NCBI RefSeq assembly: GCF_053078305.1
Contig: NZ_CP166879.1
DNA length: 64,000 nucleotides
Strand: one strand, 5' to 3'
Shown here: piece after piece, positions 7,367 to 12,464 of the stretch
Layout: each line of letters opens with the position of its first letter
Position numbering within the stretch: position 1 is the stretch's first letter
The notes under the pieces: model-generated
Told to the model about the DNA's origin: nothing
Database searches by the model: none
What the model saw: only the letters and a program-made list of their open reading frames with translations
Translations under genes and position numbers: made by a program

Positions 7367-7573
7367 TTGCCGATAGTTGCCGGAAAGCCTGCCACGGTAC
7401 GGCATGTGATTGAGGTTATGGCGCGTCATGGACGTGATGAACAGGAGCAGTTACTGGTTCCGGGGATACCGGAAGCGGTGACGGAGGAAGAAGCCTTTAA
7501 TGCCATGATTCGGTTCTGCCGTGAGGTCAGACGCCGGGTCAGTTATCCAAACAGAACGAGGACCAGAGGATGA
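7367..7573 (+). CDS. hypothetical early-region protein
   Basis: 68 aa ORF, stop overlaps next start. Confidence 0.35.
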   Translation: MPIVAGKPATVRHVIEVMARHGRDEQEQLLVPGIPEAVTEEEAFNAMIRFCREVRRRVSYPNRTRTRG

Positions 7574-7842
7574 GTAAAGTCGTACGCATTATTTTCGAAT
7601 ACAAGGAGCACGTTATCCATAAAAACGCGGATGGAACAGTGCGCATGGGGATAAGTCTGGACATACGTTCAACCGGGATAAAGCAGAAAGGTGATGGACC
7701 TGCCATGATTTTTGGGGTGGTTATGCTCGCGGAAAGCAGAGACTTTGCTGAACTTGTGGCAATGAAAGCCAGTGCGCTCATGAAAGATATGAGCATGCGT
7801 TCCGGGGTTATTAAAGGTAATGAATTTAATCAGCAGGGGTAA
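7570..7842 (+). CDS. hypothetical small protein, tandem paralog 1
   Basis: 90 aa; N-terminus MSKVVRIIFEYKEHV parallels the next ORF. Confidence 0.45.
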   Translation: MSKVVRIIFEYKEHVIHKNADGTVRMGISLDIRSTGIKQKGDGPAMIFGVVMLAESRDFAELVAMKASALMKDMSMRSGVIKGNEFNQQG

Positions 7843-7846
7843 TTCC

Positions 7847-8140
7847 ATGAGCAAAGTACGCGTTATTTTTGAATTTAAGCATGTTTCGCATGACGAAAAA
7901 CCGGCAGGCAATGACTGTGTTGAAGTGCATGAAAAGATTGGTGTGGATGTAAAAACAGAACGTGATACGAATAACAGGCCGACGTCACTCTGTGACGTTT
8001 ATGTAAGTATTCTCCAGTATCACAGTCCTGAAATTATTCAGTTTCTCTCAGCGGAATTTCAGGCATCTGTACAGGCTTTTGGGGCGGATGCCATCATTAA
8101 ACGCCACCGCGTGCATAAAGCATCAGGCACACTGCAATAA
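7847..8140 (+). CDS. hypothetical small protein, tandem paralog 2
   Basis: Starts MSKVRVIFEFKHV at the ATG at 7847 (ORF track start 7820 is further upstream in frame). Confidence 0.45.
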   Translation: MSKVRVIFEFKHVSHDEKPAGNDCVEVHEKIGVDVKTERDTNNRPTSLCDVYVSILQYHSPEIIQFLSAEFQASVQAFGADAIIKRHRVHKASGTLQ

Positions 8141-8151
8141 GGAAAAACAAA

Positions 8152-8682
8152 ATGGCAAAACGCGTTACAAAATTAAAGGCCGCAGCAGAGGCGGCACCGC
8201 AGACCCGTGAAGAGGTCAGCCGCGATATCCGCACCCTGGGCGATATTCAGCGAGAGGCGCTGCGCCTGGAAACAGCGATGAATGATGAAGTGGCAGAAAT
8301 CACCGCCCGTTATACGCCGCAGATTGAAAACCTTAAAAAAGAAATCAAAGTGCTTTTTAAGGGGATTCAGGACTGGTGCAAAACCAACCGTGATGAGCTG
8401 ACGAACGGCGGCAAAACCAAAACTGCCAATCTGACCACCGGAACAGTGTCATGGCGGCTGGGAAATCCATCATGCAGCGTCAGCCGTGATGTGGAAGGTG
8501 TGATTGAAATGCTGCGCCGTATGGGGCTTGAGCGATTCATCCGCACGAAAGAGGAAGTGAACAAGGAAGCGGTCCTGGCGGAGCCGGATGCAGTGAAAGG
8601 CATTGCCGGTATTAAGGTGAATAAAGGCGCTGAAAGTTTTTATGTCGAGCCTTTTGAACAGGACGCCGGACTGAATAAATAA
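8152..8682 (+). CDS. gam: Gam-like host-nuclease inhibitor (DNA end-binding)
   Basis: 176 aa with strong resemblance to recalled Mu Gam (…IGDIQREALRLETAMNDEVAEITARY…NRDELTNGGKTKTANLTTGTVSWR…ERFIRTKEEVNKEA…). Confidence 0.85.
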   Translation: MAKRVTKLKAAAEAAPQTREEVSRDIRTLGDIQREALRLETAMNDEVAEITARYTPQIENLKKEIKVLFKGIQDWCKTNRDELTNGGKTKTANLTTGTVSWRLGNPSCSVSRDVEGVIEMLRRMGLERFIRTKEEVNKEAVLAEPDAVKGIAGIKVNKGAESFYVEPFEQDAGLNK

Positions 8683-8779
8683 CACCGCATTAAATCTTTA
8701 AATATCACATCGTTTTAAGTATGGCGCTCGCGTCAGGGGACTGTCTGCGCCTGTAAACTGAAAATAAGGAACAGGATAT

Positions 8780-9322
8780 ATGGCATATTTTTATTTCAAA
8801 TTAGACCGTGTGCAGACAAATAAATATTTCACCAAATATCAACAGACTGTTTTACCGCTACGCAACAGTATTCTTCGGGCATTACTGAAAAATACAGGCG
8901 CTGCCGGATTGCGCTTAAAGCCGTTTGCCATGGACGTAATCAGTGAGTTTTATTTTTCTGGTACTCTGCCTGCGGGCTGGCGTAAGCGCGATGATGTGGC
9001 TTTTATCGGGGACGGACCGTGCTTTATTGCCAGACCTGATGAGTCATGCCCTGAAGGACCGGCGATTGCCGCAATGATTGAAGCCGCTGAACGCGAGTTA
9101 AGAAAGCGTCCTGATTTCCTTGTCTGGCTCTGTGAAAAGCTGGGGGTAATGAGAATCCCCTCCATGTTTAACATGGACTCCTGGTGGACCCCGTCGCTCT
9201 CCCGTGATGCCCTGTGCGTGGTGTTTAAAGTAGGCGCTTATGGCAGGGAAATAAAAGGGGGTATTCCTGAAGAATGCCAGGAGATTAAACATTCTGAATA
9301 TGTGGCGCTGACGGAGGAATAA
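8780..9322 (+). CDS. hypothetical protein
   Basis: 180 aa ORF, no recognised motif. Confidence 0.4.
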   Translation: MAYFYFKLDRVQTNKYFTKYQQTVLPLRNSILRALLKNTGAAGLRLKPFAMDVISEFYFSGTLPAGWRKRDDVAFIGDGPCFIARPDESCPEGPAIAAMIEAAERELRKRPDFLVWLCEKLGVMRIPSMFNMDSWWTPSLSRDALCVVFKVGAYGREIKGGIPEECQEIKHSEYVALTEE

Positions 9323-9325
9323 TTC

Positions 9326-9859
9326 ATGATTGATGCAAAAGTGCTTGAAGGGGTTAAAAACTGGCTGAGTATTTACGGGCGTCTGACCTGCGGAGTTCTG
9401 GCTGAAAAAATGAATATGCCGCCATCCTCGATGGTTTATTTTCTGCGTGATGCGGTTGATGCCGGGGTGCTGACGGAATGTAACGGTTTTTATGATATTC
9501 CGCGTCCCCGCCCGGTGCAGCCGGTTCGTCGCAAATGCAGCCAGGAGTCTGCGGCTGATGATGTTCAGTGGTGCAGCTTCAGAAAATCCCTGCCGTGGAT
9601 TGAGGGGCATGATATTCCGTCGATGGCGTGGGAATTTGCTCAGGGCATACTGACCTGTGAAACCGTTTATGTGGTGGCTGAAGTTGATGAGCAGGCCATG
9701 AAAGAAGGCGTGCCCCAGTTTGTGATGGCGTATATCGACATACGCCTGGGTGTCATTATCTGCGGTTTAAGCGGCTGGAATATCACCTCGCGCGTTCTGC
9801 GTTACCTGATTGTTGACCGGACGGCCGCGCCTGCCGGGATATCTGCGGAGGTGGCGTAA
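9326..9859 (+). CDS. hypothetical protein
   Basis: 177 aa ORF, tightly spaced after the previous gene. Confidence 0.4.
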   Translation: MIDAKVLEGVKNWLSIYGRLTCGVLAEKMNMPPSSMVYFLRDAVDAGVLTECNGFYDIPRPRPVQPVRRKCSQESAADDVQWCSFRKSLPWIEGHDIPSMAWEFAQGILTCETVYVVAEVDEQAMKEGVPQFVMAYIDIRLGVIICGLSGWNITSRVLRYLIVDRTAAPAGISAEVA

Positions 9860-10374
9860 TGTTCTTTAAAACATCAAACCCTTCCGCGCTGGCCGCGTGG
9901 CAAAAATATCAGCAGGACTGCCAGAAAGTTAAGGATGAGGCAAAACGCCTTGAGGCCGTGCTGAATGTTGCGTGCCGGTCGGTATTTGTATCCGGTATCA
10001 GTGGCTTTTGTTTTAAAGGGCTGCGCTTTATGGATGACAAATATCCTTTTCATCGCGACTTATGGCGAAAACCGACTGCGTCGAATGGCTGGAGCTGCAC
10101 ACCGCGCACATCACGTATTCCCAAAGCCCTGCGCGTTGCCTCTGACGAACTTAACAGTCTGTGGCGTGAATATTCGCCCGTCACGTATGCCAGAACCGAT
10201 GCACTGTTGTTCTGGCTGGGTATTGATTTCTCGGCAATCATGTTTGGCCCTGTGAAGTGGTTCTGCGTTGACGATGTGATTTACCTTGAGTGCGGCGTAA
10301 AACCCGCAAATCAGAAAATGACCGAAATTCTGTCTGATGAGTTTTATGCTGCTGAAAAGCGAGTCAGGGGGTGA
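9859..10374 (+). CDS. hypothetical protein
   Basis: 171 aa ORF, start overlaps previous stop. Confidence 0.4.
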   Translation: MFFKTSNPSALAAWQKYQQDCQKVKDEAKRLEAVLNVACRSVFVSGISGFCFKGLRFMDDKYPFHRDLWRKPTASNGWSCTPRTSRIPKALRVASDELNSLWREYSPVTYARTDALLFWLGIDFSAIMFGPVKWFCVDDVIYLECGVKPANQKMTEILSDEFYAAEKRVRG

Positions 10375-10377
10375 TGT

Positions 10378-10929
10378 ATGATGATTTTACAACCCATGGG
10401 GCGAAAAGGTCAGGCACCTGCTCATGTCCGTGCGTGGACACCTGAAGAAGATGCGCTGCTGATTGCGCTTTATCCATCCACCCCGGTTAAGGATATTGCT
10501 GTCAGGGTAAAAAGAAGTTTCTGGGGTGTACATAACCGGATTGTTTTATTACGCGGTACTTACCCGGAGTTGCTCAAATGCAAACGTCCAAGATTTAAAC
10601 ATGATGAAGATAAATTTATCCGAAAAAATGCCAGAACGATGACCGGTAAGCAAATAGGAGAATATCTGGGGCGAGACCGGGATTCTGTCCACAATCGGGC
10701 GCGATATATTGGCGTAAGCATGAAAAAATACGGAGAATTGCTGCCCTTCACCCGTATACCTGACGATGATGTTCATCTTATTCGTGAATTACGGGATGCT
10801 GAATCACCACGACGTCTTACCTTCCGGGAAATAGGCGAGAAATTTGAATTATCCGAGAGTACGGTGAATTTTATTTATCACCATCGCCGGACTGCCGAGG
10901 ACGCTGTATTACGGGAGTTAACGCCATGA
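10378..10929 (+). CDS. hypothetical protein with three helix-turn-helix-like repeats
   Basis: 183 aa; three similar ~45 aa segments with an acidic turn then basic helix (PEEDALLIALY…, KHDEDKFIRKNA…, IPDDDVHLIREL…). Confidence 0.4.
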   Translation: MMILQPMGRKGQAPAHVRAWTPEEDALLIALYPSTPVKDIAVRVKRSFWGVHNRIVLLRGTYPELLKCKRPRFKHDEDKFIRKNARTMTGKQIGEYLGRDRDSVHNRARYIGVSMKKYGELLPFTRIPDDDVHLIRELRDAESPRRLTFREIGEKFELSESTVNFIYHHRRTAEDAVLRELTP

Positions 10930-11111
10930 TAAAGAGACTTGTATTTTTCGCAATTTTCGTTCCGGTGTTGGGGGTTGGTTTTATATTTGCGATTACAGGA
11001 AACCTGTCCATGATGCCAGATATTTGGTTCTTTATCAGGATGTCGCTCTTCCTGTTTATTATGAATCTTCTTATCGACATATATATCCGTATTACTGGAA
11101 AACATAAATGA
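10926..11111 (+). CDS. small hydrophobic membrane protein
   Basis: 61 aa, two hydrophobic stretches, AT-rich, start overlaps previous stop. Confidence 0.4.
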   Translation: MIKRLVFFAIFVPVLGVGFIFAITGNLSMMPDIWFFIRMSLFLFIMNLLIDIYIRITGKHK

Positions 11112-11482
11112 GAAAAATCACGTCCTTGTCAGAGTTACAGGAGATGAATATGAGTATTGAATTAAGATCGTCTTATGAGTATCGCAAATTTCTTATCGCC
11201 GGAGGCATGAAACCGGAAGATGTGGAAAAAATCGTTTCTTTTATGGATAAGGAATGTGACAAGCGGGATGTGTCAGAAATTATTATGGATGACATGATTC
11301 TGGATTCAGTCGTGGCGTTAAGTCCGTTATGGATTGTGCATTCTCTTGCGGAAATTGCCAAAGGCACCGATAAACAGGCAGCTGTTGCTGCCCTTCAGAC
11401 GCTTAATGAAATGCGTATATCTCCACGCCCGACATTAATACAGATGATTTTGTCCAGTATGGAGGATAAAGCAAATGAATAG
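11108..11482 (+). CDS. hypothetical protein
   Basis: 124 aa, ATGA overlap with previous gene. Confidence 0.4.
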   Translation: MRKITSLSELQEMNMSIELRSSYEYRKFLIAGGMKPEDVEKIVSFMDKECDKRDVSEIIMDDMILDSVVALSPLWIVHSLAEIAKGTDKQAAVAALQTLNEMRISPRPTLIQMILSSMEDKANE

Positions 11483-11672
11483 TCTACCCGCTGGATGGGC
11501 GCGCCCTCTGATGGCTAAGAAGCATCATTTTTTTAAAACTGGCGATAATATCAGTATATGTAGGCGGTGGTTATATCTGGCTCATAATCGCGAGCCGGAT
11601 ACATTTGAAAGCCCTGATGACTGTGCCGAATGTCGCAGAAGACTGAATAAGGAGAAAGATAATGGACAGTAG
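11475..11672 (+). CDS. hypothetical small Cys-containing protein
   Basis: 65 aa with C…C-x2-C spacing (possible zinc ribbon); overlaps neighbours. Confidence 0.35.
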   Translation: MNSLPAGWARPLMAKKHHFFKTGDNISICRRWLYLAHNREPDTFESPDDCAECRRRLNKEKDNGQ

Positions 11673-11958
11673 TTCGCAGTTGTTCTGGTGTTTATATATC
11701 ACATCGTTTTTCGGTGCATTCGTCATTACACGATGGCTGTGCCGGAAAGTTATCAGTATTTTTCATAAAAAATACCTGATTGGGCTGGCGGCGACTTCTC
11801 TGATTAATGCACTTGCCAGATATCATAAGGGGGAATACTACTCAAGAATAAAAACTGATGATGGTTTTAATATTTTTGTGATTCCTCCGGAGTATCGGGT
11901 TCAGCTCGATCGGGAAAGTAATATCTATCATATCAGCAGGAGTGTTGATACAGCATGA
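11662..11958 (+). CDS. hypothetical membrane-anchored protein
   Basis: 98 aa with N-terminal hydrophobic segment; overlaps neighbours. Confidence 0.4.
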   Translation: MDSSSQLFWCLYITSFFGAFVITRWLCRKVISIFHKKYLIGLAATSLINALARYHKGEYYSRIKTDDGFNIFVIPPEYRVQLDRESNIYHISRSVDTA

Positions 11959-12464
11959 GAGGGAAACTGATATCCGCTATTCATGTGGCAAAGCGCGAGC
12001 TTGCCCTGGATGATGAGACCTACACATTCGTACTACTGGCAGCCACCGGCAAAACCAGTTGCCGGGATATGTCACCGGATGAGTTATCCCGCGTGCTGGA
12101 TGTTTTCAAAAAACGCGGTTTTAAAGTGCGTCAGAAACCGGTTAACCGGGCCTTAAAACCGGGTACGGTGACCGCCAAAATTCGCGCCATCTGGAAAGTG
12201 ATGCACTGGCAGGGCTTTATCTCTGATGGTGCGGAAACCGCTCTTAACCGCTGGGTGAAATCGCAGACGGCCGCGCAGAACGGCGGCGAAGGTGTGGCAA
12301 ACTGGCAGTGGCTGGAGCAACACCCCGCCCTGGCCTCAGATGTGCTGGAGCGTCTCAAGCGATGGCACCGCCGCAAAATGCTGGCCGCGATGGGAATGCC
12401 CGAACGCACGCTGATGGGGTATGACGCCGTTTGCAGGCAGTATGAAAAATCACTTCCCCGTTAA
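11955..12464 (+). CDS. GemA-like (Mu gp16-like) protein
   Basis: 169 aa; N-terminus …LISAIHVAKRELALDDETY… resembles the Mu gp16/GemA family as I recall it; sits just upstream of the Mor/C activator. Confidence 0.55.
   Translation: MRGKLISAIHVAKRELALDDETYTFVLLAATGKTSCRDMSPDELSRVLDVFKKRGFKVRQKPVNRALKPGTVTAKIRAIWKVMHWQGFISDGAETALNRWVKSQTAAQNGGEGVANWQWLEQHPALASDVLERLKRWHRRKMLAAMGMPERTLMGYDAVCRQYEKSLPR

Follow-up and report, generated by a model that had tools for sequence, protein, structure and literature searches.

The question raised by positions 8780-10929 of the window, by which we mean the whole stretch of 64,000 nucleotides analysed, is whether the genes that follow gam are new functions of a Mu-like prophage or belong to families already described. 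Four co-directional + strand ORFs of 180, 177, 171 and 183 aa are found here in the ORF listing, tightly packed. An earlier model reading of the sequence alone (the sequence-only reading) had assigned none of them to a known family, a view that does not hold: by sequence comparison ORF2 is gp11 and ORF3 gp12 of phage Mu, ORF4 is a PHROG 323 protein related to Mu gp9, and ORF1 falls within DUF5420, all four having PHROG matches of 1e-59 to 1e-105. The reading that we prefer, to which we give a probability of about 0.75, is that of four conserved accessory early genes of a Mu-like prophage, from recognisable phage families (gp11, gp12, DUF5420 and a Myb-like triple HTH), with ORF4 predicted to bind DNA. 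The features are as follows.

8152-8682, + strand: gam, encoding the host-nuclease inhibitor and anchoring the block on its upstream side; Pfam Phage_Mu_Gam 1.5e-41, phrog_491 3.5e-70, RefSeq 'host-nuclease inhibitor Gam family protein'
8711-8755, + strand: conserved intergenic element containing a two-tier hairpin, directly upstream of ORF1; exact pattern match at 8720-8752, TATGGCGCTCGCGTCAGGGGACTGTCTGCGCCT
8780-9322, + strand: ORF1, 180 aa, phrog_2260, predicted to be a divergent protein of the DUF5420 superfamily; occupies the variable slot that separates gam from gp11; conserved extreme C-terminus ...EIKHSEYVALTEE
9326-9859, + strand: ORF2, 177 aa, predicted orthologue of phage Mu gp11; Pfam PF25754 Gp11_C, phrog_1949 5.5e-105
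9859-10374, + strand: ORF3, 171 aa, predicted orthologue of phage Mu gp12; phrog_2314 1.4e-85, RefSeq 'Mu-Gp12 family protein' at the same coordinates
10378-10929, + strand: ORF4, 183 aa, basic protein with a predicted triple HTH, expanded relative of Mu gp9 (E8); phrog_323 6.3e-59

ORF2 is 67% identical to Mu gp11 over 177 aa (E 6e-82), and its C-terminal part matches the Gp11_C profile (PF25754) from end to end (positions 1-78 of 78) with 135.3 bits, the cut-off being 27 (E 9.3e-40). The gene lies downstream of gam and upstream of gp12, and gp11 was found in every locus of our survey long enough to reveal it. ORF3, directly after it, is 54% identical to Mu gp12 over 169 aa (E 4e-68), and a precomputed PF26885 match is present on all 46 of its homologues. 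Similarity and position together identify the two as orthologues of Mu gp11 and gp12. The proteins are of nearly the same length (177 aa for ORF2 and 176 for Mup11; 171 for ORF3 and 176 for Mup12), and the two pairs also agree in gene order, in their location downstream of gam and in the start/stop overlap. Mu differs in that ORF1 is an extra gene separating gam from gp11 in the window, and in that gp12 is followed by gp13/gp14 in Mu, while in the window the triple-HTH gene comes instead. In Mu, gp11 and gp12, formerly E10-E13, belong to the semi-essential early region. The N-terminal part of ORF2 (about 55 aa) is possibly a winged HTH, the matches to such domains being non-significant (HTH_20, E 0.26; Lrp/AsnC, E 1.6). 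The sequence-only reading had named confident matches to known Mu-like early proteins as the test of its novelty, and ORF2 and ORF3 match Mu gp11 and gp12 confidently; novelty therefore fails for at least these two.

Concerning ORF1, no match at E <= 1 was obtained with the Pfam model PF17457 (gathering score 26 bits), and two close relatives, P0037 and P0047, score 15-15.6 bits, below this cut-off. Nevertheless, HHalign aligns the ORF1 clade with DUF5420 over 179 columns, that is over its full length, with a probability of 99.9% (E 1.8e-32). An ORF1-clade profile compared with 1.8 billion proteins finds canonical DUF5420 members at 3e-10 to 1e-4, and 18 of the 27 members of a joint ORF1/DUF5420 alignment match PF17457 (best 9e-28). 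These profile comparisons place ORF1 in the DUF5420 superfamily, as a divergent member that escapes the Pfam model. Canonical DUF5420 proteins share with ORF1 a length of about 180-190 aa, an N-terminal YFKxD, a central PD...EG and a C-terminal EIKxSEFxALTEE, and they occupy the same post-gam slot in related prophages; ORF1 differs from them in forming a separate clade, whose members can stand in tandem with a canonical DUF5420.

The behaviour of this slot is one ground for the rival explanation that survives best, namely a counter-defence or host-takeover cassette. Here ORF1, gp12 and perhaps gp11 would inhibit host defence or repair by protein-protein binding, the post-gam slot would be an anti-defence 'accessory locus', and the conserved acidic tail of ORF1 (...ALTEE) would be a docking motif. 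Depending on the prophage, 0, 1 or 2 DUF5420-type genes stand between gam and gp11, on the gp11 side of the intergenic hairpin element. ORF1 itself lies next to Gam, a known nuclease inhibitor; with dN/dS values as high as 0.8 its evolution is faster than that of the adjacent genes, no solved relative of its fold was found, and the very end of its C-terminus shows strong conservation throughout the family. However, its dN/dS is still below 1 and the family is a sparse one, the 1.8 billion proteins containing 26 representatives of it; moreover, PADLOC and other family searches tie none of these proteins to defence or anti-defence, and no support was found in the literature. We consider such a cassette rather unlikely, but it and the preferred reading of four accessory early genes are not mutually exclusive.

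The last gene of the block, ORF4, had been described as three similar HTH-like segments. Its AlphaFold2 model (pLDDT 84.7) is all-helical and consists of three consecutive three-helix bundles followed by a C-terminal helix, and the following repeats were delimited.

10432-10563, + strand: repeat 1 of ORF4 (aa 19-62), Myb/SANT-like three-helix HTH; helices 22-31, 37-44 and 48-59; aligns to c-Myb repeats
10591-10716, + strand: repeat 2 (aa 72-113), Myb/SANT-like three-helix HTH; helices 75-84, 90-97 and 101-110; aligns with the first repeat of Mu gp9
10753-10893, + strand: repeat 3 (aa 126-172), divergent HTH of sigma70-region-4 / AsnC-HTH type; helices 129-140, 149-156 and 160-169; aligns with the second repeat of Mu gp9

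The three HTH-type bundles are thus present and repeats 1 and 2 are alike (HHalign probability 98%, E 1.5e-14), but the similarity is uneven: repeat 3 is divergent, its comparison with repeat 2 giving 61% (E 8e-5) and that with repeat 1 not being significant. Repeats 1 and 2 have the form of tandem three-helix Myb/SANT repeats of about 50 aa, and the ORF4 family profile matches c-Myb R2R3 with an E-value of 2.9e-6, in register over two consecutive repeats; this was the sole match when all four families were compared with PDB sequences by sequence and profile searches. With c-Myb R2R3 and other SANT/Myb domains ORF4 shares, besides the tandem repeats, the W-T-x-E-E-D start and the repeat spacing. 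Unlike c-Myb, it comes from a bacterial virus, has a third, non-Myb HTH and, of the three regularly spaced hallmark tryptophans expected per repeat, keeps just the first in repeat 1: in the alignment only this W20 is invariant, repeat 2 opens with F73, a position that is F or W across homologues, and the later positions are aliphatic.

ORF4 itself stays below every Pfam gathering threshold (HTH_AsnC-type, the best, 22.4 vs 27 bits; Myb, PF00249, 14.7 vs 24.4), while homologues at 42-48% identity exceed the gathering scores of Pfam Myb and Sigma70_r4, as in the case of P0028 (42% identity), with 34.5 bits for Myb. Sub-threshold matches in repeat 3 are to HTH_AsnC-type (1.1e-4, aa 131-163), HTH_11 (2.8e-4) and Sigma70_r4 (7.8e-4). 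With Foldseek, the full-length model found no significant match in the PDB (best E 0.17), as is expected for flexible domains arranged like beads on a string, although this is not confirmatory. Many ORF4 homologues are called 'AsnC family protein' by NCBI, a name that stands for an N-terminal wHTH joined to a C-terminal ligand-binding RAM domain. However, no RAM (AsnC_trans_reg) match is present in ORF4 and its model does not contain the beta-alpha-beta RAM fold, so that the name is probably a misnomer and 'Myb-like triple-HTH protein related to Mu gp9' fits better.

As regards this relationship, Mu gp9 (E8) also belongs to PHROG 323, 'transcriptional regulator, D5-like', in which the regulator label is annotation only, and its two repeats align with repeats 2 and 3 of ORF4 (30% identity, E 5e-10). 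The two genes differ in size and place: gp9 has 99 aa and two repeats and lies upstream of gam, whereas ORF4, at 183 aa, has a further Myb-like repeat at its N-terminus and is found downstream of gp12. In the loci scanned, we detected no gene like gp9 in the 1.5 kb preceding the intergenic element.

A DNA-binding role of ORF4 is supported by its sequence, as the profile match to c-Myb is accompanied by a marked basic character (pI 9.9, net charge +10, 35 K+R vs 25 D+E, with repeats 1 and 2 both net positive) and by conserved recognition-helix positions in the alignment. By analogy with c-Myb R2R3, each HTH would place its recognition helix into successive major grooves of double-stranded DNA, and the protein would serve as an accessory early regulator or as an architectural factor that binds DNA, not as a decoy. 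Between the two roles proposed before, regulator or decoy, the data favour DNA binding as plausible and speak against the second, in which ORF4 would be a DNA mimic or a sponge titrating a host DNA-binding protein or a defence sensor. Repeated small domains can serve as sponges, and this architecture is the only argument for a decoy. Known DNA mimics are strongly acidic, a surface that ORF4 does not show; because ORF4 is strongly basic, and its family profile matches true DNA-binding Myb repeats with conserved recognition-helix positions, a decoy role is not supported and we regard it as very improbable.

The same low standing applies to the possibility that ORF4 is not a regulator but a DNA-binding module left over from a homing endonuclease or a transposase-like mobile gene. 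It is suggested by weak matches to a PADLOC 'homing endonuclease' (E 0.008) and to PHROG endonuclease families (E 0.005-0.016), and by the bipartite DNA-binding domain of Tc3 transposase, which appears among the non-significant top Foldseek matches. All these matches, however, are weak and cover the HTH modules only; ORF4 and the adjacent ORFs have no nuclease domain, and in the phylogeny the relatives of ORF4 are all proteins of about 180 aa in Mu-like prophages. Its fixed position after gp12 in many prophages, together with purifying selection, fits a resident phage gene.

That the four ORFs are real and tightly packed after gam, as the sequence-only reading had it, was confirmed. Their coordinates agree exactly with the PGAP gene calls of RefSeq in an E. 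coli O157:H7 prophage of 99.2% identity, and a Shine-Dalgarno-like sequence precedes each gene. In pairwise comparisons with homologues from other loci, dN/dS is 0.23-0.80 for ORF1, 0.06-0.41 for ORF2, 0.12-0.46 for ORF3 and 0.11-0.31 for ORF4, and since it is below 1 for each, all four are genuine coding genes under purifying selection. The idea that spurious or decaying ORFs are among the four, or that the antisense strand carries the real gene (a 170-aa ORF at 9098-9610), can point to the presence of this long ORF and to the literature, where we found no gene-level expression data for the four genes, but it is effectively refuted by conservation over the full length in E. coli, Salmonella and Mu, by dN/dS well below 1 in the + frames and by strong PHROG and Pfam matches of the + strand products, against none for the antisense ORF.

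The block is laid out like an operon, downstream of A, B, kil and gam: a gap of 3 nt separates ORF1 from ORF2 and ORF3 from ORF4, ORF2 and ORF3 overlap by 1 nt, and ORF4 and the next ORF by 4 nt. No excess of sigma70 promoters or terminators was found within it. From gene order and the biology of Mu, the early promoter, after derepression, would drive these genes together with the rest of the early operon, and their translation is likely to be coupled. In addition to the regulatory or architectural action proposed for ORF4, gp11 is perhaps also associated with nucleic acids, through its possible N-terminal winged HTH, while ORF1 and gp12 would be accessory factors.

The neighbourhood as annotated in RefSeq (Mu transposase, AAA ATPase (B), Kil, Gam ... 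gp16/GemA, Mor, lysozyme) is that of a Mu-like phage, and the host element is a Sp18-type Mu-like prophage, common in pathogenic E. coli. E. coli chromosomes carry DNA 99.6% identical to the query, and a match was found in 261 of 5426 complete genomes, covering at least 80% of the query in 215. Prophages of this type are reported to be intact, spontaneously induced and packaged (PMC2669165) and to differ in integration site between strains (PMC7430833); the search for the prophage ends with the attL/attR sequences of Mu gave no convincing match. Across 45 viral contigs and the Salmonella loci the module order is Gam or DUF3164, the intergenic element, then either no gene, the ORF1 clade, a DUF5420 or both, followed by gp11, usually gp12, usually the triple Myb-like protein and, further on, GemA and Mor. 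This survey bears out the earlier placing of the ORFs in the variable early region of a Mu-like phage, here the semi-essential one.

The outcome is mainly corrective, as two 'unknowns' are Mu gp11 and gp12 by sequence comparison, ORF1 is filed under the DUF5420 superfamily and the label of the ORF4 homologues is revised. The region is ordinary, its genes being already known and annotated in hundreds of E. coli genomes, with existing Pfam and PHROG families. PADLOC and NCBIfam scans of the block gave nothing meaningful, and literature searches (Mu gp11/gp12, DUF5420, Mup locus tags, phage Myb-like proteins) returned nothing relevant, no paper giving a function for Mu gp9, gp11, gp12 or DUF5420. 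In the SEE region of Mu, genetically defined functions named sot, arm and cim stand without assigned genes (PMC4553209), and for this reason the conserved core of gp11, gp12 and the HTH protein offers reasonable candidates for deletion.

We also compared gp12 with DUF5420. ORF1 and ORF3 as close paralogues were rejected (BLASTP E 0.5; HHalign of a shallow ORF1 alignment against gp12, probability 0.1%), as was a complementarity of the type 'either DUF5420 or gp12', suggested by loci L003 and L007, the two being often found together in the locus survey. With a more diverse alignment, gp12 and DUF5420 are collinear from end to end over 156-158 columns, but with a probability of 7-8% and an E-value of 0.004-0.005. 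None of 200 column shuffles (mean 12.8, sd 2.2, max 20.9) reaches the HHalign score of 24.3, although the signal is weak, as is the HMM match in a set of 24 sequences (E 0.004). Among the BFVD matches listed for the ORF1 model, most of them unnamed, no recognisable Mu gp12 entry was seen.

With respect to the intergenic element, candidate identities as a sigma70 promoter or an intrinsic terminator (no consensus match, no U-tract) and as an Rfam family (no Rfam match) were discarded, and the folding energy of the spacer that holds it is no better than that of shuffles. RNAalifold gives 10 pairs, one with a compensatory C-G<->U-A change. Tentatively, and with clear doubt, we propose that these roughly 45 nt (8711-8755) may be an undescribed cis-acting element of enterobacterial Mu-like phages, either a protein-binding site or a structured RNA that affects how the early polycistronic mRNA is processed, how stable it is or how its translation is controlled, bounding a cassette-exchange slot that gains and loses DUF5420-type genes; in the same proposal DUF5420 and gp12 would form one superfamily of host-directed accessory factors, with a fold absent from the PDB.

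It should be noted, finally, that the element is common to Mu and Salmonella relatives, is not accounted for by the main explanation and hints at regulation. It is present in 45 IMG/VR contigs and 25 haplotypes, and is kept in Mu, L003 and L007 although the flanking genes differ.

The four uncharacterised ORFs at 8780-10929 are real but ordinary: conserved and already annotated, they are accessory early genes that a common Mu-like prophage carries, and all of them can be assigned to existing families. With gam, which directly precedes them, they are the following:

8152-8682: gam (Pfam Phage_Mu_Gam, E 1.5e-41)
8780-9322, plus strand: ORF1, 180 aa
9326-9859, plus strand: ORF2, 177 aa
9859-10374, plus strand: ORF3, 171 aa
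10378-10929, plus strand: ORF4, 183 aa

ORF1 and ORF2, like ORF3 and ORF4, are separated by 3 nt, ORF2 shares 1 nt with ORF3, and ORF4 shares 4 nt with the small ORF that follows; each of the four is preceded by a Shine-Dalgarno-like sequence. The coordinates proposed by the sequence-only reading are exact in our ORF list and agree with the RefSeq calls, which fall at identical positions in an E. coli O157:H7 prophage (99.2% identical). There, the block is preceded by Mu transposase, an AAA ATPase (B), Kil, small hypothetical genes and Gam, and it is followed by four small ORFs, gp16/GemA, Mor and lysozyme, confirming that it sits in the variable early region of a Mu-like phage, as had been proposed. 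The 3.1-kb stretch around the block has 99.6% identity to E. coli chromosomes and is matched in 261 of 5426 complete genomes (215 of these cover at least 80% of it); a "Bacteriophage Mu-like phage" carried as an insertion in Stx phages shares 95.7% identity with it. The source element is of the type represented in O157:H7 by the Mu-like prophage Sp18, which has been described as apparently intact, induced spontaneously and packaged efficiently (PMC2669165), and whose integration site is reported to differ among strains (PMC7430833).

The clearest assignments concern ORF2 and ORF3. ORF2 aligns over its full length with Mu gp11 (67% identity, E 6e-82), scores 135 bits against Pfam PF25754, "Phage Mu Gp11 C-terminal domain" (cut-off 27), and matches phrog_1949 at 5.5e-105. 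With Mu gp12, ORF3 shares 54% identity (E 4e-68), and its PHROG match is phrog_2314 (1.4e-85); each of its 46 database homologues carries a precomputed PF26885 match, and RefSeq names its product "Mu-Gp12 family protein". In Mu, too, gam is followed by a gap (98 nt), gp11 and gp12, and the last two show the start/stop overlap that ORF2 and ORF3 have. By sequence, ORF2 and ORF3 are orthologues of the Mu early proteins gp11 and gp12, and such confident matches to known Mu-like early proteins are what the sequence-only reading, which could place none of the ORFs in a known family by eye, had itself named as refuting evidence. A literature search on the gp11 and gp12 families found no paper. The N-terminus of ORF2 (about 55 aa) weakly resembles a winged HTH (HTH_20, E 0.26; Lrp/AsnC chain, E 1.6), which is to be taken as a lead only.

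For ORF1, no counterpart was found in Mu, and no match in Pfam, NCBIfam or PADLOC. It matches phrog_2260 at 1.7e-74; a word-indexed search returned only close E. coli relatives and one Salmonella "DUF5420 family protein" (38% identical), and an exhaustive profile search returned just 26 proteins, mostly full-length matches, among 1.84 billion representatives. Pfam DUF5420 is matched by 18 of the 27 members of a joint ORF1/DUF5420 alignment (best 9e-28), and HHalign relates the ORF1 clade to canonical DUF5420 members with a probability of 99.9% (E 1.8e-32, 179 columns), so that by sequence ORF1 too is assignable to an existing family. DUF5420 and gp12, which frequently co-occur in the surveyed loci, have in common, by eye, FFKTS at the start and an EILSDEF motif close to the end. 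A diverse DUF5420/ORF1 alignment is collinear with gp12 end to end over 156-158 columns, at a probability of only 7-8% and with E-values of 0.004-0.005 in HHalign; its score of 24.3 exceeds those of all 200 column shuffles (mean 12.8, sd 2.2, max 20.9). With a canonical DUF5420 HMM, gp12 sequences get no better than E 0.004, and no entry recognisable as Mu gp12 is among the BFVD matches listed for the ORF1 model, most of which are nameless. A more remote possibility is that DUF5420 and gp12 form one superfamily whose fold is absent from the PDB.

In PHROG, ORF4 falls into phrog_323 ("transcriptional regulator, D5-like"; 6.3e-59), the family with which Mu gp9 (E8) is annotated. Its residues 66-168 align with the entire gp9 (30% identity, E 5e-10), so gp9 is the counterpart of the second and third of its consecutive HTH segments (repeats 1, 2 and 3: aa 19-62, 72-113 and 126-172). 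The earlier description of ORF4 as three similar HTH-like segments holds in part: within a 28-sequence family alignment, HHalign found repeats 1 and 2 clearly homologous (98%, E 1.5e-14) and repeats 2 and 3 moderately similar (61%, E 8e-5), but nothing significant between repeats 1 and 3. The AlphaFold2 model consists of three consecutive three-helix bundles and a C-terminal helix (pLDDT 84.7, pTM 0.50), the pTM pointing to flexible linkers. Among solved structures, the family profile picks up the DNA-binding domain c-Myb R2R3, aligned in register across two repeats (E 2.9e-6), as well as further Myb structures; of the three tryptophans that are the hallmark of Myb, only the first is kept. ORF4 itself stays under every Pfam threshold (HTH_AsnC-type 22.4 vs 27, Sigma70_r4 19.4 vs 24.1, Myb 14.7 vs 24.4); homologues 42-48% identical to it clear the Myb_DNA-binding and Sigma70_r4 gathering scores. 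A Foldseek search of the PDB with the full-length model returned nothing significant (the best was 2lvs, a "CRISPR repeat binding protein", at E 0.17), and multi-HTH DNA binders populate the top of the list. We read ORF4 as a protein predicted to bind DNA, in which two HTHs are Myb/SANT-like and one is of the sigma70-r4/AsnC type. The profile match and the strongly basic character of the protein (pI 9.9, net +10) support the earlier guess of DNA binding and leave the idea of a decoy unsupported. The NCBI name of many homologues, "AsnC family protein", is probably a misnomer, since neither the Pfam search nor the model contains a RAM domain and the best supported similarity is to Myb/SANT repeats.

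We also considered coding reality and transcription. The homologues compared came from 45 viral contigs and from other loci; their pairwise dN/dS was 0.06-0.41 for ORF2, 0.12-0.46 for ORF3, 0.11-0.31 for ORF4 and 0.23-0.80 for ORF1. One further frame overlaps ORF1 and ORF2:

9098-9610, minus strand: antisense ORF, 170 aa

It matches no family and no PHROG and, given the purifying selection on the plus-strand frames, is probably non-coding. Promoter-like and terminator-like sites are not in excess inside the block, as would fit a tightly packed operon transcribed by read-through; by analogy with Mu biology, ORF1-ORF4 would be co-transcribed from the early promoter.

The spacer between gam and ORF1 (97 nt) contains a conserved island just upstream of ORF1:

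8711-8755: intergenic element, about 45 nt (exact pattern 8720-8752)

Context look-ups, together with a local HMM survey covering loci that bear this element, revealed a modular order in relatives, namely Gam or DUF3164, element, slot, gp11, gp12, triple HTH, small genes, GemA and Mor, although, since the element served to collect the loci, its association with the block is partly built in. The slot holds nothing, the ORF1 clade, canonical DUF5420, or both; gp11 is present in every locus of sufficient length, gp12 and the triple HTH are usual, and the small genes are either Mu gp13/gp14-like or the four of the window. ORF1 therefore lies in a variable slot, while gp11 is the constant core. A Salmonella lineage of Mu-like prophages carries a DUF3164 protein in Gam's place and retains the downstream element and gp11 block:

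L003:5275-5913 (related prophage locus): DUF3164 instead of Gam; likewise in L019, L022, L029, L031, L036 and L039

Salmonella prophages that have the unrelated DUF3164 gene upstream of it and a different gene downstream keep the element. It is found in the gam-gp11 spacer of Mu as well, and its pattern occurs in 45 IMG/VR contigs (25 haplotypes). Nucleotide identity between window and Mu is 63% for gam, 69% for gp11, 54% for gp12 and, by our own count from the alignment, about 80% for the core element; the first 180 nt of gp11 are also well conserved (80% identity to Mu). RNAalifold predicted a GC-rich two-tier hairpin of 10 pairs, with one fully compensatory pair (C-G to U-A in 3 of 11 haplotypes), two pairs with G-U-preserving changes, one broken cell, and an apical tetraloop varying at its last base only. 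The element has no U-tract, sigma70 consensus, terminator match or Rfam match, and the folding of the entire spacer is no better than that of shuffles. The element may serve in RNA processing or stability or as a protein-binding site, or it may form, together with the conserved gp11 5' end, a junction favouring cassette exchange in the slot; it is possibly a novelty.

Small ORFs flank the block on both sides. Two adjacent ones lie upstream of gam:

7570-7842: small ORF, phrog_4107
7847-8140: small ORF, phrog_2230

They share near-identical N-terminal residues (about 15, MSKV(V)R(I)IFE[YF]K...; BLASTP 71% over 17 aa, E 0.001) and little else. Downstream, ORF 11108-11482 has its longest form from 11108 (124 aa), while the RefSeq homologue starts at the equivalent of 11150 (110 aa), so its start codon is uncertain. 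G+C is about 0.41 at 10900-12000, in the small-ORF cassette after ORF4 (0.355 in the 61-aa ORF at 10926-11111), against 0.47-0.58 elsewhere in the prophage, which suggests an AT-rich accessory segment acquired separately; some relatives have Mu gp13/gp14-like genes in its place.
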